From NCBI GenBank assembly GCA_044221035.1, contig JBGAPU010000014.1, forward strand, positions 7,598-71,597: a DNA stretch of 64,000 bases, in the 5' to 3' direction. Shown piece after piece: positions 1 to 10,440 of this stretch. This DNA comes from Chthoniobacteraceae bacterium. GTDB lineage: Bacteria > Verrucomicrobiota > Verrucomicrobiia > Chthoniobacterales > Chthoniobacteraceae. The first letter of the stretch is position 1; each line of letters begins with the position of its first letter. The position numbers and the translations under genes are program-made. The notes beneath the pieces are model-generated. The model had not been told where the DNA came from, ran no database searches, and worked only from the letters and a program-made list of their open reading frames with translations.

Positions 1-274
1 CTCCATGAAGTCCTCCTTCGTGAGGTGCTTCAGCAGGTCGGTTCGGAGTTTCATCGGGCATAGGTTAATCCCCGCGGGGTTCGATGCAACCCCCGCAGCA
101 AAGCGCCCCGCCCGCCCCGTGGCGAGCGCATTCGCCATCCCCAGCCCTTCGCGTCACCTCGCCTTGGTTAATGCCGGACGCGGCGTGCGGGTGGCTCACC
201 AGTTCGGATTCGGAAACACGCAGCACCCCGGCCCATGCTTGGGAAGGCCTGCATCCTGCTAAATCCCTCCCGCC

Positions 275-1069
275 ATGGCACGCACCTACGGAAAACCTTC
301 GGAATATCTTTTGAAAGAGGCATCGGACAAGAGCATGCGGATTGTGCTCGGCGGGTTTCTCGCCGTCTTCGCCCTCGGCCTCGCCGTCGGCGGACTGATG
401 CACGCGGCGGAAGTCCATTACGCGCAGATTTCCGCCAGCGTCGTCTTCGCCTGCATCGTCACGGCTCTGGTGTTCTTCTGGTTCAGGCGCCGCGCCCTCG
501 CGTGGGAAAAGGAGCGCCAGAGCTTCCGCAAGGGCGCCCGCGGCGAGGCCGTCGTCGCAGACATCCTCGCGAGGCTCAGCGACAGCTACTTCGTCATCCA
601 CAACCTCCCCACCTCGAACGGCGCCTACGGCGACTACGACCATGTCGTCATCGGGCCCACCGGCATCTTTGTCATCGAGACCAAGGACTGGCGCGGCCAC
701 GTCACCACCGATGGCCACGGCGAACTCCTCCGCAACGGATACCCGACCGAGCGGCCCTTGGTGCGGAAGTTCGTCTCCCGCGTCATGCACCTCCGTGAGC
801 ACGTCCGCGAAGTCACTGGCTGCGAGCACTTCTTTCAGGCCGTCTTCGTCTTCACCTCCGCGCTGCTCAAGGCCGGGAAGGGCGACACGGGAAAGGCCCT
901 CTGCATCTCCGAGGAAAAGCTCTTCGACCTCATCGAGGAGGCAAAGCCCGCCAAGCGCATCCCCGGCACGGACACCCGGAGGATCGCCAAGGCCCTTCAC
1001 GATTTCGCCGTGAAGAATGGAAAGGCCCCGCACCAGCCCGCGGCCACACCCGCACCGGCGGCGGTGTGA
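275..1069 (+). CDS. Membrane-anchored NERD (nuclease-related domain) protein
   Basis: 264-aa ORF. Two N-terminal hydrophobic helices (GGFLAVFALGLAVGGL; VVFACIVTALVFFWF) are followed by a NERD-type core, 'GEAVVADILARL..YFVIHNLP..DYDHVVIGPTGIFVIETKDWRG'. Confidence 0.8.
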   Translation: MARTYGKPSEYLLKEASDKSMRIVLGGFLAVFALGLAVGGLMHAAEVHYAQISASVVFACIVTALVFFWFRRRALAWEKERQSFRKGARGEAVVADILARLSDSYFVIHNLPTSNGAYGDYDHVVIGPTGIFVIETKDWRGHVTTDGHGELLRNGYPTERPLVRKFVSRVMHLREHVREVTGCEHFFQAVFVFTSALLKAGKGDTGKALCISEEKLFDLIEEAKPAKRIPGTDTRRIAKALHDFAVKNGKAPHQPAATPAPAAV

Positions 1070-1070
1070 C

Positions 1071-1742
1071 TCACTGCAAAGCGGATCGCCCGCTTGTTGA
1101 AGTCACGGAGACCGGAAGGCAAATCTCCGGGGCGAGTTTCTGCAACAGGCTGAGCGCTTCGGCATACGTGCGCCTGTCGGCGATGTGTTCAACGTGGTCA
1201 TTCGCATCCAAGCCGTAGATTCCGAAGAACGGCTCGTCGTAGTTCTCGTCGAAAGGGTCATCGCTCGCTGTGAACGCTTCTGTGAAATCATCGCCGAGTA
1301 AGTTGCGCATAGTCTGGATGCGAAACGCCCTGAATGGGGAACCCTGCACGGGATTCGGCGCGATGACATCGATAGGCACGCGCAGACCTGCGGAAGACCT
1401 CACCGGCAGCCCCATGCGAAGCGCCACTCGCAGGCAGTGATTGTCGCCAAAGACGGCAAGGTTCTCGAAGCCCACCACCTCCACGCACGCACCACCAAAT
1501 CTGTCCTCCATCAGGTAAGGCCAGACCTCATCGAGCTCATCGAACGCAATAGTGTCTGAGGCCCATGTTTCAAAGCGCGTCGCCACCCGCATGACGACGC
1601 GCATGAATTCATCGCCGCCGTTGTAGCGCTCGGTGAGGTTCACGCGTTCAGAGCCTTTGGCCGCTTTCATGCACTCCTGCCAAAGTGACAAAGCGCATCC
1701 AAAAACTGCGGCGGGGTCGGGCTGTTCAGCTTCATCACTCAT
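1071..1742 (-). CDS. Hypothetical acidic protein (223 aa), no recognised domain
   Basis: Clean ATG-started ORF. Its stop lies 1 nt from the NERD stop (convergent). Its start lies 38 bp from the divergent HNH gene. Composition is non-repetitive and protein-like, unlike the antisense shadow ORFs. Confidence 0.6.
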   Translation of the reverse strand: MSDEAEQPDPAAVFGCALSLWQECMKAAKGSERVNLTERYNGGDEFMRVVMRVATRFETWASDTIAFDELDEVWPYLMEDRFGGACVEVVGFENLAVFGDNHCLRVALRMGLPVRSSAGLRVPIDVIAPNPVQGSPFRAFRIQTMRNLLGDDFTEAFTASDDPFDENYDEPFFGIYGLDANDHVEHIADRRTYAEALSLLQKLAPEICLPVSVTSTSGRSALQ

Positions 1743-1780
1743 CGCTTTTCCACAAAGCGGCAGGCCGGTAGTTTCCTGGA

Positions 1781-2581
1781 ATGTCTCTCCGGAAAAAATG
1801 GACCCGCGACGAACTGCTCGTCGTTCTCAACCTCTACCACAAGCTCACGTTCGGGAGGCTCCATGCACGGAACCCCGTCATCATGGCGCTCGCTGAAAAG
1901 CTCGGGCGTGGAGCGAACAGCGTGGCAATGAAGCTCTGCAACCTCGCTTCGCTCGATCCCGCGCTGAAGCTCCGGGGCATCAAAGGACTGACCGGCGCGA
2001 GCGCCTTGGACCGCGCCGCATGGGAGGAGTTTCACGCAGACCTCGAAGAATCCGTTCCCGCGAGCGAGGAAGCGTTCCGGGCGCTGTTCGAGGCGGACGC
2101 AAACGCTGAAGTGGAAGTATTGCCCAAAGCGGGTGTGCGTGTGCGCAAGACTCCTCCGCGAGGACCGACGGAAACAGTCGCCAGCGTGAAGCTGCGCAGA
2201 GGGCAGGAATATTTCCGTGACGCGGTGCTGAATAACTTCGGCGGGCGCTGCGGCGTCACCGGTCTCGCTGTTCGCGAATTGCTGATCGCGTCGCACATCC
2301 TCCCGTGGGGGTTGCACCCCGCGGAACGCCTCAATATCCGCAACGGGCTTTGTCTCTCACGCCTTCACGATGCCGCGTTCGATCGCGGCCTAATCGCCTT
2401 CGATGATGGCTTGAGGCTGCTGCTCTCCCCCCAACTCAAGATCGAGATTTCCCAGCGAACAGTGGCCGAAAATTTCGGCGCGTATGCGGGAACACCGCTG
2501 CAAGTGCCGGATGACGCCGTGCTGCCCGACATCGAATTTCTTGCGGCGCATCGCACCCAAGTCTTCCGCAAGCGGTCATAG
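1781..2581 (+). CDS. HNH endonuclease (HNH_2 / putative restriction endonuclease type)
   Basis: C-terminal 'RCGVTGLAVRELLIASHILPW...NGLCLSRLHDAAFDRGLIAFDD' is the His-Me finger pattern of the stand-alone HNH_2 family. The N-terminus 'WTRDELLVVLNLY' is typical of this family. Confidence 0.8.
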   Translation: MSLRKKWTRDELLVVLNLYHKLTFGRLHARNPVIMALAEKLGRGANSVAMKLCNLASLDPALKLRGIKGLTGASALDRAAWEEFHADLEESVPASEEAFRALFEADANAEVEVLPKAGVRVRKTPPRGPTETVASVKLRRGQEYFRDAVLNNFGGRCGVTGLAVRELLIASHILPWGLHPAERLNIRNGLCLSRLHDAAFDRGLIAFDDGLRLLLSPQLKIEISQRTVAENFGAYAGTPLQVPDDAVLPDIEFLAAHRTQVFRKRS

Positions 2582-2968
2582 CACCTCGAAAACGAATTCG
2601 CTCGGCTTCTCGGTGAGCAGCCTCGCCGATTTCACCCGGACTCTGCCAAGGTAAGTGAATGGCGAGTGGTGCCGCTTGCGATGGAACACGTGAATCTCGT
2701 CTCCTCTTTCGTCCGCCATGGCGATGCGTGAATCGGTGCGATGCCCATTCTCTCCCTCCCAATGCAGCGTCGCGCCGCTCAGCATGTCTTCATAGGCCGT
2801 GAGCGATTCCTGTTTCTCCTCAGTGACGAATAGCACGATGTAATTCTGGCCGGCTGGAGTGAACACGCCGCGGGCGATTGCGTGAAAGTCCCGGTATCCC
2901 CACAGCGTGGCGAGGTGGTTGCGGTCCCAGATGGAGTCCTTCGGGATGGAGTCGAATTGAACTGGCAT
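2576..2968 (-). CDS. Stand-alone DUF3427-like domain protein
   Basis: 130 aa with the pattern 'LFVTEEK...YEDML..ATLHWEGE...IHVFHRK...PFTYLGRVRV...KPSEFVFEV'. This matches the DUF3427 layout usually fused to SF2 helicase/nuclease proteins. Its 3' end overlaps the HNH gene stop by 6 nt (TCATAG). Confidence 0.6.
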   Translation of the reverse strand: MPVQFDSIPKDSIWDRNHLATLWGYRDFHAIARGVFTPAGQNYIVLFVTEEKQESLTAYEDMLSGATLHWEGENGHRTDSRIAMADERGDEIHVFHRKRHHSPFTYLGRVRVKSARLLTEKPSEFVFEVL

Positions 2969-3087
2969 GGGTTCCAGAAAGGTCTGAACGAGGAGCCATG
3001 TTCAAGCGCGCTCATAGCGCCGATGAGTCAAGTCGTGCCGCGCCCCGGCGCGCTTGTGTTCCGGGGGGTGGCGGGTATGCTCCCGCC

Positions 3088-3315
3088 ATGTCCGTGACGC
3101 TCACCGCCAACCGCGAACTTCCCATCCCCGAGGAGGTGTGCTCGCAACTGGGCCTGAGGGCAGGGGATGAGTTTGAAGTGCTCACCGCGGCGGACCGCCT
3201 GATCGCGATTCGGAAAGGTGCGGCGAAGCCGGGGGATTTCCGCGCGCTGATGGAGCGGCTCGCCTACGTGCGGGCGGGGCGCCGGTTCAGCCGCGACGAG
3301 GCGAATGAGCGCTGA
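3088..3315 (+). CDS. AbrB/SpoVT-family antitoxin (VapB-like)
   Basis: 75-aa product 'MSVTLTANRELPIPEEVCSQLGLRAGDEFEV' is a SpoVT-AbrB swapped-hairpin motif. Internal ATG at 3088 of the longer ORF 2878-3315. Overlaps the downstream PIN gene by 11 nt. Confidence 0.75.
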   Translation: MSVTLTANRELPIPEEVCSQLGLRAGDEFEVLTAADRLIAIRKGAAKPGDFRALMERLAYVRAGRRFSRDEANER

Positions 3316-3751
3316 GGCGTTTCTGGACACGAACGTCCTCGTCTATGGCTTCGATCCCTCGGAGCCGGAGAAGCAGCGCCGCGCGCTCGGCCTCGTGGAG
3401 TCGGCGCTGCGCGAGGGCAGCGCGGTCATCAGCACACAGGTGGTGCAGGAGTTCCTGAACTTGGCGACGCGCAAGTTTGCGACCGCGTTTTCGGCTGCAG
3501 ACCTGCGCGCGTATCTCGATGCGGTGCTGTGGCCGCTCTGCCGGGTTTTTCCAGACGCCGCGCTCTACGGGCTCGCGCTGGAGGTGCGCGAAGAGACGGG
3601 CTTCAGCTTCTACGACTCGCTGATCGTGGCGGGCGCGCTGGGCGCGGGATGCCGCAGGCTCTATTCGGAAGACATGCAGCATGGCCACACAGTGCGCGGT
3701 CTGGTGATCGAGAATCCCTTTGGCAGCGGCGTGCCGCCGGTCCGGCCCTGA
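3305..3751 (+). CDS. vapC: PIN-domain ribonuclease toxin (VapC-like)
   Basis: N-terminal 'FLDTNVLVY' acidic motif, internal 'QVVQEF' and 'FYDSLIVA' PIN signatures. Translationally coupled to the AbrB antitoxin. Confidence 0.85.
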   Translation: MSAEAFLDTNVLVYGFDPSEPEKQRRALGLVESALREGSAVISTQVVQEFLNLATRKFATAFSAADLRAYLDAVLWPLCRVFPDAALYGLALEVREETGFSFYDSLIVAGALGAGCRRLYSEDMQHGHTVRGLVIENPFGSGVPPVRP

Positions 3752-3844
3752 ACGTCGTCGAGGGCTGATGCCCCCTGCGCGGCGGTGCGGCAACCGGCAC
3801 CATCCGGTCCGATTCGGCGGGTGGGCTGGGCTGGGCCAGCCGCA

Positions 3845-3861
3845 ACTTTTTTCAAAAAAGT
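3845..3861. repeat. Perfect AT-rich 17-bp palindrome ACTTTTTTCAAAAAAGT, preceded by a GC-rich dyad (candidate bidirectional terminator or operator)
   Basis: Read directly. It is the only strongly AT-rich palindrome in this part of a GC-rich window. It lies about 95 bp after the vapC stop and after 'GCTGGGCCAGC'. Confidence 0.4.
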
Positions 3862-4106
3862 GAGGCTGAAAGTGTAACAAAACGGCGCGGGAGGCGTATC
3901 AGCGGGTGAACACCGAAATCTTCACCCCAGCCTCCCCATGAAGCAGACCCCAGCCGCGCTCCGGCGCATTTCCATCATTCCCACCCAGCGGCAGCCCGGC
4001 GATCCCGGCGCCGGGCCGGTGCCCGTGCCCGCATGGGTGCGCGGCACCGCCAGCCTTCACCGCGCGGGCGGCGCGCACTGAGCGAGACCACCGGGAGGAC
4101 GCAGCG

Positions 4107-4598
4107 ATGAGCACGAGGAAATCGGGCAGTGGGTCGGGAGAGCCGGCGGTGCCGGCGTGCGGGGAGAGCGAGGACGGGAACCGGCGCGGAAAGGCGACCG
4201 GGTGTGCGCGGGGACTCGCGAACGGCGAGTTCCGGAGCGCGAAGCGGCCCGTGAAGGGCCGGGGCAACGCGAACGCGCGCGGGCCGCTGGGGAAGGTCGC
4301 GGCCGACGGCACCTCCGAGCTTGGAAAATACTTCGGGCTCGTGGTGCGCATGGAGATGGAGTGGCAGGGCTACAACCAGCGCGGGCTGGCGAATCTCGCG
4401 ATGATGCGGGAAAGCACGCTGAGCCTCCTGCTGAATGCGAAGCACACCGTGTGGATGAGCACCGCGGAGAAAGTGGCCGACGCCCTCGGCTTCATGCTGG
4501 AGGAACTGCTGACGCGCGCGCGCGATTTCATCGAGACGGTGAAGGCCGAGGCCATCCGCGCGGCGGTCCTCGATGCGCTGAAAGCTTCTTTTCTTTGA
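4107..4598 (+). CDS. XRE-family helix-turn-helix protein with Arg/Gly-rich N-terminal extension
   Basis: 'LGKYFGLVVRMEMEWQGYNQRGLANLAMMRESTLSLLLNAKHTVWMSTAEKVADALGF' fits the Cro/C1 HTH pattern. The start codon is uncertain because the N-terminal 70 aa are low complexity. Confidence 0.55.
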   Translation: MSTRKSGSGSGEPAVPACGESEDGNRRGKATGCARGLANGEFRSAKRPVKGRGNANARGPLGKVAADGTSELGKYFGLVVRMEMEWQGYNQRGLANLAMMRESTLSLLLNAKHTVWMSTAEKVADALGFMLEELLTRARDFIETVKAEAIRAAVLDALKASFL

Positions 4599-4761
4599 AG
4601 CACACCTGACCCCGCGGCCCGCTTCAATCGCGCCCGTGCCACAGAACGAACCACTTTTCTGGGATGACGAAAGCGACCCCGCCCTCGTGTGGGATTCGCC
4701 GCTCCCGCTCGAGTGGGACGGCCTGCGGCCGGACAACAACAACAACCAACAGAACAACACC

Positions 4762-5265
4762 ATGCCAGACGACAACCGAATCAGCGCCACCGTGTCCCCG
4801 ACCGACAAGGCGGCAATCATCACCAAGCTCACGGAGATCAAGGCCCTGCTGCCCTTCCTCCTGAACCTGACGAAGGACGAGCGCATCCAGCTCCCGAAGC
4901 TCGGCGGCGCGTCGCTGCTCTTTGACGAGCAGTGCGCGAGCTACATGGCCAGCGCGCCCACCCTCGTGCCGCCCTATGTGGACCCGGCCGAGGTCGGCAA
5001 GGACCGCGCCCTGCGGCTCGTGATCGCGGACATCCTCCGCGAGGTGAAGAAGCTCTGCGAGCAGCTCGACGACACGCTGCTGCTCATCGGCAGCGAGATC
5101 TGGATGGCGGACCTGTCCTTTTACCAGATGGTGCGCCAGGCCGCCCGCCGCAACGTGGTGGGTGCGGACACCGTGTATGACGACCTGAAGGAACGTTTCC
5201 CCGGCCTGAATGGCGACCCGGAGGAGGAGCCGGAGGATCCCGAGAATCCGAACCCCACGCCGTAA
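4762..5265 (+). CDS. Conserved-looking hypothetical protein (167 aa)
   Basis: ATG at 4762 is preceded by an unusual A/C-rich leader (ACAACAACAACAACCAACAGAACAACACC). The product is helical and non-repetitive, with an acidic Pro-rich tail. The ORF track alternative start is GTG at 4636. Confidence 0.55.
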   Translation: MPDDNRISATVSPTDKAAIITKLTEIKALLPFLLNLTKDERIQLPKLGGASLLFDEQCASYMASAPTLVPPYVDPAEVGKDRALRLVIADILREVKKLCEQLDDTLLLIGSEIWMADLSFYQMVRQAARRNVVGADTVYDDLKERFPGLNGDPEEEPEDPENPNPTP

Positions 5266-5475: not shown

Positions 5476-5800
5476 TTTCACCCCGCGAGGGGGGACCCCT
5501 AGGGGTGGTCATCACCACCCCTGAGGGTGGTCATCGGCACCCCTCGGGGTGGTCGGTGGGGACCCTCCGGGGTGGTGATCGCCACCCCCGGAGCCCCCGA
5601 TCGGGACCCCTTGGGGTGGTTCCCGGGTGCCCTCGGGGTGGTGATCGGCAGCCTCGGGGGTGGTCGGTGGGCACCCTTTGGGGTGGTCATCGGGGGCCTC
5701 AGGGGTGGCTGCCGGGACCCCTCGGGGTGGCGATCGGGTGCCCGAGGGGTGGTCAACGGCAGCCCTCGGGGTGGCGATCACCACCCCGGAGGCTGCCGAT
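5476..5800. repeat. Degenerate 22-bp tandem array (about 13-15 units) with phased GGGGTGG cores
   Basis: GGGGTGG or a near-variant recurs at 5502, 5524, 5546, 5569, 5613, 5635, 5657, 5680, 5702, 5724, 5746 and 5768, giving spacings of 22-23 bp. Each unit carries a CCC-N3-GGGG mini-dyad. The region is open in all six frames, and the period is not a multiple of 3. Confidence 0.85.
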
Positions 5801-6172: not shown

Positions 6173-6607
6173 ATGCCCTTCGACCCCAATCTCCCCGCCT
6201 CCGGCTCCCGTATCCAATCCCAAGTCGTCCGCGACCAGCTTAATGGACTGAAGTCGCTCATAGACAATGTGCCCGGCATCACCGCCGTGGTGATTGACAG
6301 CGTGACCACGCTGCCGCCCGGCGAGGCGGCCACCGTGGGTGCCAGCGTCGCCGCCGGTGTGCTGCACCTCAGCTTTGCCATCCCGCAGGGCACCGCCGGG
6401 ACGAATGGAGCCGATGGTTCCCAAGGCCCGCAGGGCCCGATGGGTGCCGTGACTCCGCAGAACCTCGACGACGCCATCGTGACCACGGCCCGGAACCCGA
6501 GCGCCATCGGGCCTTTCGCTGGCACGTTCAGCGACCCGCCGACGCAGGCGGAGCTGGTGGCGTTTGCGGCGCACGTGGAGACGCTGCGCGCGGCGCTGGT
6601 GAGGTGA
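6173..6607 (+). CDS. Small collagen-like (Gly-X-Y) protein, tail-fibre-like architecture
   Basis: 144 aa. 'GTAGTNGADGSQGPQGPMG' gives six G-X-Y triplets (nt 6389-6445), flanked by non-repetitive N- and C-terminal regions. Confidence 0.55.
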   Translation: MPFDPNLPASGSRIQSQVVRDQLNGLKSLIDNVPGITAVVIDSVTTLPPGEAATVGASVAAGVLHLSFAIPQGTAGTNGADGSQGPQGPMGAVTPQNLDDAIVTTARNPSAIGPFAGTFSDPPTQAELVAFAAHVETLRAALVR

Positions 6608-6765: not shown

Positions 6766-9700
6766 TCAGTCCGGCTTTGCCCAGCGCTGGAGCACCTGAA
6801 GGTAGGCGTCGTGCTTTTCCGCGGGCGTGGCCTTTGCGATGGCGCGCAGCTTTTCGCGCAGGGCGAGCCATTCGTCGGCTTCGATGGTCTCCATGCCGCC
6901 GCTGGGGCCGATCTTCATCTGCGCCATGTAGCGGAGGAAGTCGGGGAACCAGTCCGGCGGGAGGCCGGAGCCGGGAGGGAGGATTTTCCAGATGCGCGCG
7001 CGCACATCGGGGCCGGCGACCACGACGGAGCTGCCATCCGGACTGAAGCGCGCACTGAGGGCCACCGGGTCGCGGCCCGTGCCGGCGGGCACGCCTCTTC
7101 CCGGTCCCATGGTGCCCAGCAGGCGCTCGCCGGCGATGTCCCACAGCGCGGCGGTGCTGCCCCAGTTGACGGTCGCCAGCCGCCGGCCGTCGGGGCTGAA
7201 ATGGATGCGGTGCTGCTGCTCGGAGTAGGTCTGGTCGAAGAAATTCGTGAGCGGCTTGCCGGTGGTGGCGTCCCAGAGGCGCGCATTGCGGTCGATGGAG
7301 GCGGTGGCGACGAGCCTGCCGTCGGGGCTGAACTCCGCCTCGTGCACGGGGCGCTGGTGGCCGGTGAGGCTGAGGAGGGGCCTGCCGGTGGCGGCATCCC
7401 AGATGCGCGCGGTGTTGTCGTCGGAGGCGGTGACGATGCGGGTGCCGTCGGGGCTGAAGGAGGCGCGGCTCACGTTGGACTCGTGGCCGGTGAGGAGGAG
7501 CAGCGGCTTTCCGGTGGCGGCATCCCACACGCGGGCGATGGGCTCGCGGGAGGCGGTGGCAATGCGCCTGCCATCCGGGCTGAACTCCGCGGAGGCGACT
7601 TCATCCGGGGAGCCGGAGAGGACGGTGAGCATCTCCCCGGTGGCGGCGTCCCACACGCGGGCGGTCTTGTCCTTCGAGGCGGTGACGAGGCGCCCGCCAT
7701 CGCGGCTGAACTGGGCGGTGAAGACTTCGTCGGTGTGGCCCTCGAGGTTCACGAGGACTTCGGCGCTGGCGGCATCCCAGACCAGCGCGGTGCGCGCCCG
7801 CCCGGCGGTGACGATGCGGGTGCCGTCCGGGCTGAACTGCGCATCCGTGGCGTAGGCGTCGCCGGGGAAGTTGTTGAAGGCGGCGGGCTCCGCGGGTTTC
7901 AGCGCGGTCCAGATCCGGGCGGTGCGATCCTGCGAGGCGGTGACGACGCGCGAGCCGTCCGGGCTGAACTCGGCGGCGAGCACCCAGCCGAGGTGGCCGC
8001 CGAGCGTGACGAGCTCCTTCCCCCGGGCCACATCCCAGATGCGCGCGGTGTTGTCCAGCGAGGCGGTGGCGAGCGAGCGGCCATCCGGGCTGAACTGGAC
8101 GCGGAAGATCGTGCTGCGGTGACCGCGGAGGATGGCGGTGGTCTTGCCCGTGGCCGCATTCCAGATGCGCGCCGTGTGGTCGCCCGAGACGGTGACGATG
8201 CGCCGGCCATCCGGGCTGAACCGTGCATCGAGCACCCAGTCTGGATGGCCGGCGAGGGTCATGAGCAGTTTCCCGCCCGCTGTCTCCCAGACGCGCGCCG
8301 TGTGGTCGAATGACGCGGTGACAATCCGGGCTCCATCGGGGCTGAAGCGTGCGATGAGTCCCTCCTTGTGCCCGGTGAGGGCGGCCATTTCGCGCCCGTC
8401 CGCGGCGTCCCACACCCGCGCGGTCTTGTCGTCGGATGCGGTGAGGAGGCGGGTGCCGTCCGGGCTGAAGGAGGCGTGGGAGAGTCTGTCGGTGTGGCCG
8501 GTGAGCGTGAAGAGGAGCTTGCCGCTGGCGGCGTCCCAGAGGCGCGCGGTTTTGTCCGCCGAGGCGGTGACCACTTTCGCCCCGTCGGGAGAGAACCTCG
8601 CGCTTTCGAGGGAATCCAGATGGCCGGAGAGAATGGCCTTGCTGGCGCCGGTGGCCGCATCCCACACGCGGGCCGTCTTGTCGCGCGCAGAGGTGACGAC
8701 GCGGGAGCCGTCGGGGCTGAACTCGGCGGAGGTGAGGGCATCGGTGTGGCCCTCCATTCGCACGAGGAGGGCGCCGGTCGCCGCGTCCCACACCTGCGCG
8801 GTCCGGCCGAAGAAGGTCACGATGCGGGCGCCATCGGCGCTGAACCGCACGCCCCACCACACCTCGCTGTCGCCGGGCTTTTCGAGTTTCGAGCGCGGCT
8901 CGCGCATGATGAGCGCCGGGTGCGGGTGGCACCAGCGGTTGAGGGCGAGGAAGGCCTTCTCCGCCGCGGCGGCGGAGCCCGGGGGATCGTATTCGCAGGA
9001 GCGCGCGAGATGCGCGAACGCCTCGCGGTCCCGCCACGCCTGCAGCTCCTCCTCGGCGGCGACGCGGTCGGAAAGCGCGGCCTCCGCCAGCATCCGCCGG
9101 GACTCCCCGTTTTTCCGCGCAATCTCCACGCGCGCAGCCTCGACCTTCTGAGTTTGGGAATTCGCCTCCGACTCGGCGCGCCGCGCGCGGAGCATCTGGA
9201 GCGTGCTCGCCGCGATGCCGCCGACGAGAAGGAGGAGGATGGTCGCGGCGGAGGCGAAGGCGAGGCGGTTGCGGCGGACGAGCTTGCGGAAGCGGTAGAG
9301 CGCGCTGGGCGGGCCGGCTTCCACGGGCTCGCTGGCGAGGTGGCGCGCGATGTCGGCGGCGAGTGCGGCGGCGCTGCCGTAGCGGCGCTCGCGGTCCTTT
9401 TCCAAGGCGCGGAGGGAAATCCAGTCGAGGTCGCCGCGGAGGGTGCGGGTGAGTTTGCCGGGCTCGGTGCCGCGCGTGGTCGCGGCGGTGCGGGTGATGT
9501 CGCCCGCATTGCCGACACGGCTGCTCGGGCGCGGGGCCTCGCTCTCGCGGATCATGCGGAGCATTTCATCGAAGGCGGCGCTGCGCAGCGTCTCCGTGCT
9601 GAGCGGGGTGTCGCCGGTGAGCAGCTCGTAGAGGATCACGCCGAGGGTGTAGATGTCGCTGCGGGTGTCGAGGTCCCCCTTGGCACCGGCCTGCTCGGGG

Positions 9701-10440
9701 CTCATGTAGCGCGGCGTGCCGATGAATGCGCCGGTCTGCGTGAGGGTGAGGCCCGCGCGGATGGCTTCGCTCTCGGTGCCGAGCGCCTTGGCGATGCCGA
9801 AGTCGATCACCTTCGGCACGGGCTTCCCGTCCACTTCGCTGACGAGGATGTTTCCCGGCTTCAAGTCGCGGTGGAGGATCGCCTTCTGGTGCGCGTGCTG
9901 CACGGCGTGGCAGACGGGGATGAAGAGTTCGAGCCGCTCGCGGATGGTGAGCTTGCGGGCGTCGGCGAACTTCGTGATCGGCTCGCCGCGGACCAGCTCC
10001 ATGACGAAGAAGGGGCGGCCATTCTCCGTGGTGCCCGCGTCGAGCACGCCGGCGATGTTCGGATGCTCCATGAGCGCGAGCGCCTGCCGCTCCGCCTCGA
10101 ACCGCGCGATGATCTCCGCGCTGTCCATGCCGGCCTTGATGAGCTTCAGCGCGACCTCGCGGCGAATGGGCTCGCTCTGCTCCGCGCGCCACACTGCGCC
10201 GAAGCCGCCCTCGCCGAGCTTCTCGATCAGCCGGTAGCGCCCCACGACCACGCCCGGCTGCTCCACGCCGCCCGCGGCCACGCGCGCCACGGTCCCTTCG
10301 GTGGGGAAATCCGCGGGGTTCTCCGCATTTGCCGCGAACATGCGCTGCATGGTCCCGTCACCCATCCGGTGCGTGGCGTCCTCCGGTTGCACGCCGCCCC
10401 CGTCGCCGTCACTCACCGGCTCGGTGGTCTCGTCAGACAT
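6766..10440 (-). CDS. Ser/Thr protein kinase with one TM helix and about 15 WD40 repeats
   Basis: Hanks kinase motifs are present: 'GEGGFGAVW', 'VALKLIK', 'HRDLKPGNIL', 'DFGIAK', 'GTPRYMSPEQ'. TM segment 'LAFASAATILLLLVGGIAAS'. Then about 15 units ending 'ARVWDAATG', 'ARIWDAATG' and similar. Confidence 0.9.
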   Translation of the reverse strand: MSDETTEPVSDGDGGGVQPEDATHRMGDGTMQRMFAANAENPADFPTEGTVARVAAGGVEQPGVVVGRYRLIEKLGEGGFGAVWRAEQSEPIRREVALKLIKAGMDSAEIIARFEAERQALALMEHPNIAGVLDAGTTENGRPFFVMELVRGEPITKFADARKLTIRERLELFIPVCHAVQHAHQKAILHRDLKPGNILVSEVDGKPVPKVIDFGIAKALGTESEAIRAGLTLTQTGAFIGTPRYMSPEQAGAKGDLDTRSDIYTLGVILYELLTGDTPLSTETLRSAAFDEMLRMIRESEAPRPSSRVGNAGDITRTAATTRGTEPGKLTRTLRGDLDWISLRALEKDRERRYGSAAALAADIARHLASEPVEAGPPSALYRFRKLVRRNRLAFASAATILLLLVGGIAASTLQMLRARRAESEANSQTQKVEAARVEIARKNGESRRMLAEAALSDRVAAEEELQAWRDREAFAHLARSCEYDPPGSAAAAEKAFLALNRWCHPHPALIMREPRSKLEKPGDSEVWWGVRFSADGARIVTFFGRTAQVWDAATGALLVRMEGHTDALTSAEFSPDGSRVVTSARDKTARVWDAATGASKAILSGHLDSLESARFSPDGAKVVTASADKTARLWDAASGKLLFTLTGHTDRLSHASFSPDGTRLLTASDDKTARVWDAADGREMAALTGHKEGLIARFSPDGARIVTASFDHTARVWETAGGKLLMTLAGHPDWVLDARFSPDGRRIVTVSGDHTARIWNAATGKTTAILRGHRSTIFRVQFSPDGRSLATASLDNTARIWDVARGKELVTLGGHLGWVLAAEFSPDGSRVVTASQDRTARIWTALKPAEPAAFNNFPGDAYATDAQFSPDGTRIVTAGRARTALVWDAASAEVLVNLEGHTDEVFTAQFSRDGGRLVTASKDKTARVWDAATGEMLTVLSGSPDEVASAEFSPDGRRIATASREPIARVWDAATGKPLLLLTGHESNVSRASFSPDGTRIVTASDDNTARIWDAATGRPLLSLTGHQRPVHEAEFSPDGRLVATASIDRNARLWDATTGKPLTNFFDQTYSEQQHRIHFSPDGRRLATVNWGSTAALWDIAGERLLGTMGPGRGVPAGTGRDPVALSARFSPDGSSVVVAGPDVRARIWKILPPGSGLPPDWFPDFLRYMAQMKIGPSGGMETIEADEWLALREKLRAIAKATPAEKHDAYLQVLQRWAKPD

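Follow-up and report, generated by a model that had tools for sequence, protein, structure and literature searches.

Introduction

Modification-dependent HNH enzymes are built from an N-terminal reader domain and a C-terminal HNH domain (Lutz et al. 2019, PMC6765204). We analysed a 64,000-nucleotide stretch of the genome of a Chthoniobacteraceae bacterium (Verrucomicrobiota; GenBank assembly GCA_044221035.1, contig JBGAPU010000014.1, positions 7,598 to 71,597 of the forward strand; hereafter the window), in which the gene of an HNH_2 nuclease stands back to back with the gene of an acidic protein of 223 amino acids, here called U223. The nuclease resembles the group of EcoKMcrA, TagI and VcaM4I/TspA15I, of which VcaM4I is an EVE-HNH modification-dependent enzyme, in being a single chain of about 250-310 amino acids with an N-terminal domain and a C-terminal HNH_2 domain, and also in that no functional methyltransferase adjoins it in the window. 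It differs from that group in its N-terminal domain, which is helical and matches no SRA, EVE, PUA, SBD or further known reader domain by sequence or fold, and in its conserved separate partner U223, whereas the known enzymes have none.

Three further described arrangements invite comparison. DUF3427 is the domain by which SauUSI and the McaZI group recognize 5-methylcytosine and 5-hydroxymethylcytosine, and fusions containing it have been reported in defence islands together with methylases and DUF2075 helicases (PMC6765204). A protein of 130 amino acids encoded next to the window nuclease carries part of this recognition domain, a relative of it is fused to an HNH_2 domain in one related locus (L037), and DUF2075 helicases occur in two U223 loci (L017 and L045); in the window, however, the DUF3427-like domain stands alone, with no nuclease or helicase domain. 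The NgoAXIII locus of Neisseria gonorrhoeae consists of a Vsr gene plus a truncated, inactive C5-methyltransferase (PMC6789123). There, as in the verrucomicrobial loci described below, the same nuclease family lies beside Vsr and a C5-methylase stump, but the gene order is different and no U223 homologue is present. Finally, loci related to the window retain parts of a Dcm/EcoRII-type block of methylase (M), restriction (R) and Vsr (V) genes, with the 5' part of the methylase gene and an intact Vsr gene on either side of the nuclease-U223 module. They differ from such a block in that the target-recognition end of the methylase, with motifs IX-X, is missing and the R slot is filled by an HNH (or NOV_C) gene plus U223.

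An initial annotation of the window, made from the sequence alone, had proposed that six small genes at positions 275-3751 form one composite defence locus. We find this interpretation partly supported: the genes are arranged as it described, and the unit that recurs among relatives is the divergent pair of nuclease and U223. Here, we describe the pair, its control region and its association with truncated Dcm-type methylases, and we weigh what the two proteins may do together.

Results

A divergent nuclease-U223 pair is the conserved unit

An alignment of the U223 family was scanned against one genome per species, which yielded 52 U223 loci, nearly all of them from metagenome-assembled genomes (MAGs) of Verrucomicrobiota; four bear other or probably mislabelled names. 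The taxa covered are Chthoniobacterales/Spartobacteria, Akkermansiaceae, Luteolibacter, Opitutaceae and Limisphaerales/Pedosphaera. When the neighbours of U223 in these loci were scored by tblastn with the window proteins, a homologue of the HNH nuclease was found to adjoin U223 in 40 of the 52, divergently in 35 and co-directionally in five. A NERD gene adjoins it in a single locus (L017) and a DUF3427-like gene in two (L009 and L037), and neither AbrB nor PIN genes stand beside U223 in any of the 52. The closest syntenic relative, locus L002 of a Spartobacteria MAG, shares with the window the U223 gene (70% protein identity), the HNH gene (80%), a helix-turn-helix (HTH) gene and a gene for a 209-amino-acid protein, while the NERD, DUF3427-like, AbrB and PIN genes are all absent from it. 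As these four genes are rarely or never found near U223, only the divergent U223-HNH pair is conserved as a unit, which comprises U223, the HNH gene and the 38-bp spacer between them. The genes of the island are laid out in the window as follows.

275-1069, plus strand: NERD gene, 264 amino acids, PF08378
1071-1742, minus strand: U223 (223-amino-acid open reading frame), no family, conserved nuclease partner
1743-1780, no strand: divergent control spacer, 38 bp between the U223 and HNH start codons
1781-2581, plus strand: HNH gene, 266 amino acids, PF13391 (HNH_2)
2576-2968, minus strand: DUF3427-like gene, 130 amino acids, partial match to PF11907
3085-3315 (76 amino acids) or 2998-3315 (105 amino acids), plus strand: AbrB/MazE-type antitoxin gene, TIGR01439 below cutoff
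3305-3751, plus strand: PIN (VapC-like) gene, 148 amino acids, PF01850

The packing is as tight as the initial annotation had stated. Nucleotide 1070 alone separates the stop codons of the NERD gene and U223, the start codons of U223 and HNH flank the spacer from which the two genes diverge, the HNH and DUF3427-like genes overlap tail to tail by 6 nucleotides, and AbrB and PIN, on the plus strand, diverge from the DUF3427-like gene on the minus strand. The gene content had been described as of defence and toxin-antitoxin type, which agrees with the Pfam matches for NERD, HNH_2, DUF3427 and PIN. The islet is low in G+C (58-63% over window positions 1-3000; 70-73% across 6.5-12 kb; mean of 65.9% over 8001-64000). 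That no named system fits the combination was likewise confirmed by a PADLOC scan, in which the HNH protein alone had a strong match: fewer than two island genes match components of any single multi-gene system in PADLOC-DB 2.0, and nothing was returned for U223, the DUF3427-like protein or PIN. Rfam, a sigma-70/terminator scan and a repeat search of the island gave nothing relevant.

The claim that did not survive is that all six genes cooperate as one composite system, with AbrB-PIN as a module. Very close spacing (a 1-nucleotide gap, a 38-bp spacer, a 6-nucleotide overlap), a low-G+C islet that covers all the genes, DUF3427-like genes near the pair in L009 and L037 and a membrane-anchored NERD protein encoded after U223 in L017 would all suit such a system. 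Yet co-occurrence with U223 fails for four of the six genes, L002 does without all four, the convergent orientations mean that the genes are not co-transcribed, and the position of the DUF3427-like gene differs among its three occurrences. The co-occurrence check proposed for the four genes outside the toxin-antitoxin pair thus came out in favour of U223 and HNH (40/52 loci) and against NERD (1/52) and the DUF3427-like gene (2/52), and we regard a six-gene system as extremely improbable. The island may instead have grown by accretion, as defence and toxin-antitoxin genes that are independent of one another gathered around a conserved two-gene module, an interpretation that we hold with about half confidence; the NERD gene, the stand-alone DUF3427-like reader and the VapBC-like pair would then be later, independent additions.

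The nuclease combines an HNH_2 core with a distinct N-terminal domain

The HNH protein matches PF13391 (HNH_2; E = 8e-11) and, over its full length, the PADLOC model PDLC04132 'HNH' (3e-83); a second PADLOC HNH model, PDLC03546, described as a type II enzyme, matches at 3.3e-28. Both models presumably belong to the PADLOC category 'RM type HNH', whose name is itself attested in papers. Residues 129-229 align to VcaM4I (PDB 6yex; 5.6e-15) and keep the residues of the ASHI, NGL and LHD motifs, which makes this a C-terminal HNH_2 (beta-beta-alpha-Me) domain with an intact motif, as in type IV HNH enzymes. Judged by these matches, the nuclease belongs to a known kind, the HNH_2 restriction nucleases. 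The gene is under purifying selection, with a ratio of non-synonymous to synonymous substitution rates (dN/dS) of about 0.21, and the nucleases that accompany U223 fall into three clades, with about 70-83%, 45-57% and 37-40% identity to the window protein.

Residues ~1-125 form a conserved domain with the pattern W-T-R-D-E...N-L-Y...G-R...S-V-A-M-K-L-N-F-A-S-L-D-P. A profile of this domain had no match in Pfam or among PDB sequences, and the domain is of none of the reader classes SRA, EVE/PUA, SBD or McrA-N. A profile search of the protein database collected 838 clusters, mostly fragments (compared with 334 for U223), and revealed no architecture other than that with HNH_2. In the AlphaFold model, in which the HNH core is poorly modelled, the N-terminal domain consists of helices and a terminal hairpin (pLDDT mostly 77-93, and 70 at residues 61-70).

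A nuclease homologue with a different accessory set was seen in L133 (862-3155), where the gene (38% identity) comes after a GHKL/HATPase_c_3 ATPase gene and is itself followed by an overlapping open reading frame (ORF) of 128 amino acids.

U223 is a protein family without detectable relatives

U223 homologues form 334 clusters, are conserved from residue 1 and evolve with a dN/dS of about 0.16, and U223 is therefore a real gene. The family is restricted to Verrucomicrobiota, and a profile search among 1.84 billion proteins recovered 292 representatives. No match was found in Pfam, NCBIfam, PADLOC, PHROGs or PDB sequences, nor was U223 found on IMG/VR viral contigs and plasmids. AlphaFold predicts with high scores (pLDDT 91.9, pTM 0.86) that residues 10-109 fold into a helical bundle and residues 125-190 into a beta-rich domain. 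By these searches of sequence and of the predicted fold, U223 is a protein family without a detectable sequence or structural relative.

Rare long forms of 434-449 amino acids occur in co-directional operons (L058:2308-3657 and L059:580-1884; P0265 and P0270). They carry an N-terminal extension of about 200 residues with a CxxC...CxxC motif and no Pfam match. As the extension belongs to no family and the operon neighbours have no Pfam matches either, these forms give no domain-fusion clue.

U223 keeps a nuclease neighbour while the nuclease itself is exchanged

In five loci without the HNH gene (L014, L023, L024, L027 and L031), U223 diverges from the gene of a NOV_C/DUF3883 protein of about 283 amino acids, of the PD-(D/E)XK type. 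In L017 and L045, it adjoins a DUF2075/Schlafen-type helicase gene, and L045 also holds a different HNH_2 protein. Altogether, a nuclease or helicase neighbours U223 in 47 of the 52 loci. The U223 proteins of L019 and L028 are near-identical (dN 0.055) and their HNH nucleases belong to different clades (dN 0.50); across loci, the distance matrices of U223 and HNH correlate weakly (Mantel r = 0.21). Both results indicate that the nuclease has been exchanged beside a constant U223. We also considered an N-terminal domain shared by the HNH and NOV_C partners; hhalign aligned the two in register, but at E = 0.11 the relationship is unsupported.

A second sample of contexts, fetched from HNH homologues, looks at the pair from the nuclease side. 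U223 is present in L054/L055, L142 and L144, several of the HNH loci that have no U223 still carry remnants of the methylase/Vsr block described below, and N. gonorrhoeae and a Hymenobacter plasmid carry full-length relatives of the nuclease (39-41% identity) that are unaccompanied by U223. The dependence is hence asymmetric: U223 nearly always has a nuclease, and the nuclease does without U223.

This asymmetry bears on the possibility of a toxin-immunity or abortive-infection module, in which U223 would be a DNA-mimic-like inhibitor that restrains a promiscuous HNH (or NOV_C) nuclease until infection. The charges of the proteins would suit such a role, U223 being acidic (isoelectric point, pI, of 4.46) and the nuclease basic (pI 9.37), as would the tolerance of U223 for nucleases of unrelated folds and the frequency of nuclease or helicase neighbours (47/52). 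However, at least five verrucomicrobial loci, Neisseria and Hymenobacter keep an intact nuclease in the absence of U223, a divergent arrangement is unusual for toxin-antitoxin pairs, and U223 has no structural likeness to known immunity proteins or DNA mimics. Because the nuclease persists in its absence, U223 is no obligatory antitoxin, and we consider an immunity function of this kind unlikely. U223 is rather predicted to be an accessory that modulates the nuclease.

In relatives, the module occupies the place of the restriction gene beside a truncated Dcm-type methylase

Clustering of the U223 neighbours brought out a recurrent block around the module. A truncated C5-methyltransferase gene (PF00145, up to 9.5e-62) stands beside the nuclease in 14 of the 52 U223 loci, usually convergent with it, and 3'-truncated methylases were also seen in L074, L142 and L143. 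The stumps keep at most motifs I-VIII: only 7-8 of the 14 retain motifs I, IV and VI, and the remaining ones are shorter pieces of 29-134 aligned residues. The point of truncation varies from residue 29 to 254, and in most loci the methylase ends at or within about 40 nucleotides of the nuclease stop codon; in L019 and L048, a gap of about 650 nucleotides separates the two, and in L046, where the HNH gene is co-directional, the stump ends about 40 nucleotides before the HNH start codon. In the tested stumps, motifs IX and X are absent, save that in L046 and L048 the motif X pattern matches at distant positions on the opposite strand; what remains of the shorter stumps aligns to the N-terminal part of the family alone. 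All 16 stumps compared (those of the 14 U223 loci plus L142 and L143) are 3'-truncated, including that of L031, which lies beside a NOV_C nuclease. In L133, the methylase beside the same nuclease family is 5'-truncated. In the loci seen, no intact methylase stands next to this nuclease family.

On the other side of the module, a Vsr gene (PF03852) is present in 22 of the 52 loci, usually downstream of and co-directional with U223. In 12 of the 52 (e.g. L003:6660-6959, L013, L015 and L046), U223 is directly followed by an ORF of about 95 codons, S95, which runs up to the start of Vsr and has the motif AWCxIAYxxPGLHPDG...FAAEAWRRAxAGEL...DAQWSGLYDRM; no Pfam family matches it, and the window lacks it. 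We considered and rejected two origins of this DNA. Neither S95 nor the DNA from U223 to Vsr matches the motif IX/X patterns, as the lost 3' end of the methylase should, and neither has, by eye, any likeness to the C-termini of EcoRII-like, MvaI/BcnI-like or other R proteins, as a remnant of a displaced restriction gene would.

To see the methylase family outside the module, 80 loci were collected by a metagenome scan with a methylase fragment. With narrow search patterns, 53 of them match both motifs IX and X and 22 one of the two; of the other five, three are cut off by the end of their contig and two are truncated genes, namely L074 (at the 3' end, beside HNH) and L133 (at the 5' end). Where flanking sequence is available, Vsr commonly follows the methylase, in some loci immediately and in others behind a gene of about 1 kb, which is EcoRII-like in L062, encodes an EcoRII-N-HNH_2 protein in L071 and L078 and is something else in L068 and L069. 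The methylase family is therefore of the Dcm/EcoRII type and, on account of the EcoRII-N partners, probably specific for CCWGG. With a truncated methylase on one side and Vsr on the other, the nuclease-U223(-S95) unit thus sits where the R gene and the 3' end of the M gene used to be. Full-length genes of the MvaI/BcnI family were observed at L019:2963-3742 and L143:2819-3598, between U223 (or its remnant) and Vsr, the methylase being truncated in both loci.

By comparison, the module of the window appears stripped down: methylase remnant, small ORF and Vsr are gone. A tblastn search with the Dcm-type methylase of the relatives, the one methylase family searched for in this way, found no homologue in the 64-kb window, and none of the six island ORFs matches a methylase in Pfam, NCBIfam or PADLOC. 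The window nuclease therefore has no adjacent intact DNA methyltransferase, the usual companion of a type II enzyme; it does match HNH restriction-enzyme models, as type II enzymes do, and the lack of an adjacent cognate functional methyltransferase is what a type IV enzyme would show.

These data allow a type II interpretation to be weighed, in which the nuclease would cut unmethylated sites in the classical way, with its methylase encoded elsewhere and U223 acting like a controller protein or being unrelated. The two PADLOC models point in this direction, the EcoRII-N-HNH_2 proteins of L071 and L078 are encoded as R genes beside intact methylases of this same family, tail-to-tail order with a C5-methylase is typical of restriction-modification (R-M) pairs, and CCWGG is depleted in the window (48 sites observed, 90 expected; ratio 0.53). 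But of the 16 adjoining 3'-truncated methylases none is intact, and Neisseria and L133 add to these cases; the relatives' methylase has no detectable homologue in the window; and a type II enzyme ought to kill a host that lacks its methylase, whereas this nuclease evolves under purifying selection with its motif intact. A classical type II enzyme is accordingly improbable in our view.

The Neisseria locus shows the same association in another phylum. Between pheS and pheT of N. gonorrhoeae (L140:3956-5747) lies the gene of a 249-amino-acid HNH_2 homologue (39% identity over 97% of the length) with the same N-terminal domain; the order is Vsr (7.5e-39), a methylase stump of 133 amino acids cut after motif I, an ORF of 113 amino acids without family and HNH, all co-directional. 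In the literature on the NgoAXIII locus, we found no mention of the HNH gene and the 113-amino-acid ORF beside it.

The history of the module

The methylase stumps are not freely decaying pseudogenes, against which their dN/dS of 0.21 argues. This value and a low dS point to mosaic histories and suggest that intact methylases were hit repeatedly soon after they had spread, or else that recombination refreshed the stumps. These data also bear on a selfish origin, in which nuclease and U223 would be a homing-type cassette that inserts into Dcm-type methylase genes or M-R-V systems, the association reflecting choice of target. A truncation point that varies (residues 29-254) and yet nearly always abuts the nuclease gene would be in keeping with insertion, as would the position of the cassette between the truncated methylase and the R-V genes in L019 and L143 and the varied genomic contexts outside the block; the stumps' dN/dS and their dS, below that of the cassette genes, are as expected if intact, recently spread methylases had been hit independently. 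On the other hand, no copy occurs on IMG/VR viral contigs or plasmids, a repeat search found the module of the window to lack flanking terminal repeats, a homing element as a rule spares its host gene, and no pair of empty and filled alleles with identical flanks was found. Moreover, although its G+C content lies on average about 5 points below that of the flanks, the module follows the G+C content of its host (r = 0.84), which marks it as an old resident and no recent import, and dS between copies is saturated. We therefore think a homing cassette highly unlikely.

Another possibility is that U223 belongs with S95 and Vsr, as part of a repair/methylation operon of an old R-M-V system in which the nuclease slot is variable and the adjacency of nuclease and U223 has no meaning. 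U223, S95 and Vsr are co-directional in many loci, with overlaps or short gaps, the type of nuclease varies beside a constant U223, and the promoter palindrome described in the next section occurs irrespective of the type of nuclease, and also where there is none. The nuclease is nevertheless the most persistent neighbour (40 HNH plus 5 NOV_C genes, versus Vsr in 22 and S95 in 12 of 52 loci), the pair survives without Vsr, S95 or stump in the window, L002 and L010, and it is also found in co-directional, operon-like orders. We rate a meaningless adjacency as quite unlikely.

CCWGG sites mark the control region

The promoter region of U223 contains a decamer, CCTGGCCAGG, made of two overlapping CCWGG sites and usually extended to the palindrome ACCTGGCCAGGT. 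The decamer occurs once per locus in 22 U223 loci and in none of the 87 other loci compared. In 20 of the 21 loci with a placed start, it lies 12-15 nucleotides before the U223 ATG, and at exactly 15 in 14 of them; the exceptions are L014, with 5 nucleotides to the first in-frame start, and L026, in which no start was placed. Conserved CTTGCC and TAGT/TGTAT elements flank the palindrome, which is also present where the partner is a NOV_C nuclease and in loci without a nuclease. A literature search for the palindrome sequence returned unrelated papers only.

CCWGG sites are found in 31 of the 36 divergent spacers. The window belongs to a class of about 10 related divergent loci with spacers of 36-38 bp, in which the full palindrome is missing and an invariant (T/A)CCAGGAA abuts the HNH start codon. 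In the window itself, CCTGG at 1775-1779 directly precedes the HNH start and is the only CCWGG site within positions 1-5135. The TAGTTT before it (1769-1774) is a putative -10 element of a leaderless HNH transcript; a sigma-70 consensus scan of the island reported nothing.

The other genes of the island and its surroundings

The NERD protein matches PF08378 at 1.5e-16 (domain at residues 86-193) and has two N-terminal transmembrane helices predicted from its sequence. MAD6 and PglW match it via their NERD parts only (48 bits for a cutoff of 460 and 13.8 for a cutoff of 990), far from the full-length composition of MAD6 of MADS or PglW of BREX, in which NERD is joined by a kinase and further domains. 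It is an independent, lineage-specific neighbour of the module.

The DUF3427-like protein matches PF11907 at 4.5e-8 (33.1 bits, cutoff 27.7), over profile positions 155-245 of 280 only. It is 47% identical to the N-terminal half of the DUF3427-like-HNH_2 fusion L037:4047-4940 and 58% identical to a stand-alone protein of 131 amino acids in L009, and it is therefore a free-standing reader domain that is no conserved partner of the pair. A small ORF of 96-111 amino acids without Pfam match was noticed near the DUF3427-like gene in these two loci (L009:3021-3311, minus strand, at 124 nucleotides; L037:3660-3995, plus strand, at 51 nucleotides; 51% identity to each other); it has no counterpart in the window.

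The AbrB gene is supported below cutoff (TIGR01439, 1.8e-5; PF04014, 0.0029), its 105-amino-acid version being the gene call on the Logan contig L001. PIN matches PF01850 at 3.8e-11. As in VapBC systems, a small AbrB/MazE-like gene overlaps the PIN gene, here by 11 nucleotides, in the order antitoxin then toxin. Nothing about the pair is unusual, and it is unrelated to the conserved U223-HNH unit.

Two genes shared with L002 follow on the right. An HTH protein of 163 amino acids (4107-4598), 55% identical to its L002 counterpart, is syntenic with the HNH-U223 pair, and an acidic protein of 209 amino acids without family (4636-5265) is 41% identical to that of L002 and has a weak relative near the HNH gene of L145. 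Together, they may be a second conserved element of the neighbourhood.

Between the 209-amino-acid gene and a collagen-like ORF, positions 5495-5779 hold about 11-15 tandem copies of a G+C-rich, partly palindromic unit of about 22 bp with a consensus near GGGTGGTCGATCGGGACCCTCG and higher-order periods of 44 and 111; Rfam returned a chance miRNA hit only. The collagen-like ORF (6173-6607, 144 amino acids) has a G-x-y stretch and weak PHROG tail-fibre matches, the best at 4e-5, and is possibly a prophage remnant beside the island. Further on, a minus-strand ORF of 1224 amino acids (6766-10440) begins, by its translation, with a Ser/Thr protein kinase followed by many WD40-like repeats.

Discussion

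The reading that best accounts for the pair makes the nuclease a type-IV-like enzyme dependent on modification, and U223 its new accessory protein; we see the chances of this reading as about even and infer its mechanism as follows. The HNH protein would act like McrA, TagI and VcaM4I, its N-terminal domain selecting the DNA and its HNH_2 domain cutting it. The DNA selected would most likely be cytosine-methylated at Dcm-type (CCWGG) sites, a choice of target that would account for the disabled state of every Dcm-type methylase found alongside the nuclease; the nuclease would be incompatible with Dcm-type methylation and hence is probably modification-dependent. U223 would gate or tune it, whether by acting on the nuclease directly or by way of a circuit in which the CCWGG operator is read.

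Several observations weigh against this reading. The case for modification dependence is drawn only from the domain architecture and from the negative association with intact methylases. The N-terminal domain had no significant Foldseek match (E >= 0.27) and shows no known reader fold, and its insignificant top matches include several winged-helix or HTH DNA-binding proteins. Nor did the U223 model match anything in PDB or BFVD at E <= 0.001, the best scores being E = 0.33 in PDB and E = 8.8e-3 in BFVD, for an uncharacterised phage protein of 99 amino acids. The partners also occur apart: HNH without U223 in L056, L057, L074, L143, L145 and other phyla, and U223 without an adjacent nuclease in L022, L032 and L044. 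Among the methylase stumps, those of L003, L006, L012, L015, L019, L028, L031 and L048 are under purifying selection (dN/dS of about 0.21) and have a dS several-fold lower than HNH and U223 in the same locus pairs, and in L019 and L143 the module still has an MvaI/BcnI-type restriction gene beside it. Lastly, the depletion of CCWGG in the window is not unique; since other pentamers are comparably low and the ratio in pooled relatives is 0.76, it is weak evidence, and we dropped it as a strong independent signal.

A bolder version of the modification-dependent reading would see in the cassette a dedicated counter-measure to Dcm/EcoRII-type methylation. The nuclease would attack CCWGG-methylated DNA, and the cassette would have established itself inside R-M-V systems by destroying the methylase, repeatedly and in two phyla, while the double-CCWGG operator of U223 would read the methylation state of the cell and so time the nuclease. 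This we put forward as doubtful but deserving of attention.

In the libraries and literature searched, we found no description of the N-terminal domain, of U223 as a partner, of the CCWGG palindrome or of the systematic link to truncated Dcm-type methylases. Should the modification-dependent reading fail, the locus would be an ordinary defence islet with one orphan HNH nuclease. If it holds, U223 would be a new family that repeatedly partners restriction-type nucleases, with at least two catalytic folds among them, in a phylum that has been little studied, and the truncated methylases would be the genomic signature of a conflict between a methyl-directed nuclease and methyltransferases, visible in Verrucomicrobiota and in Neisseria gonorrhoeae alike. 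The 12-bp palindrome of two CCWGG sites, at its fixed distance from the start codon, could couple expression to cytosine methylation. Were this sensing of CCWGG methylation to prove true, the module would be a type IV system that senses methylation and regulates itself, and U223 would represent a new class of accessory protein.

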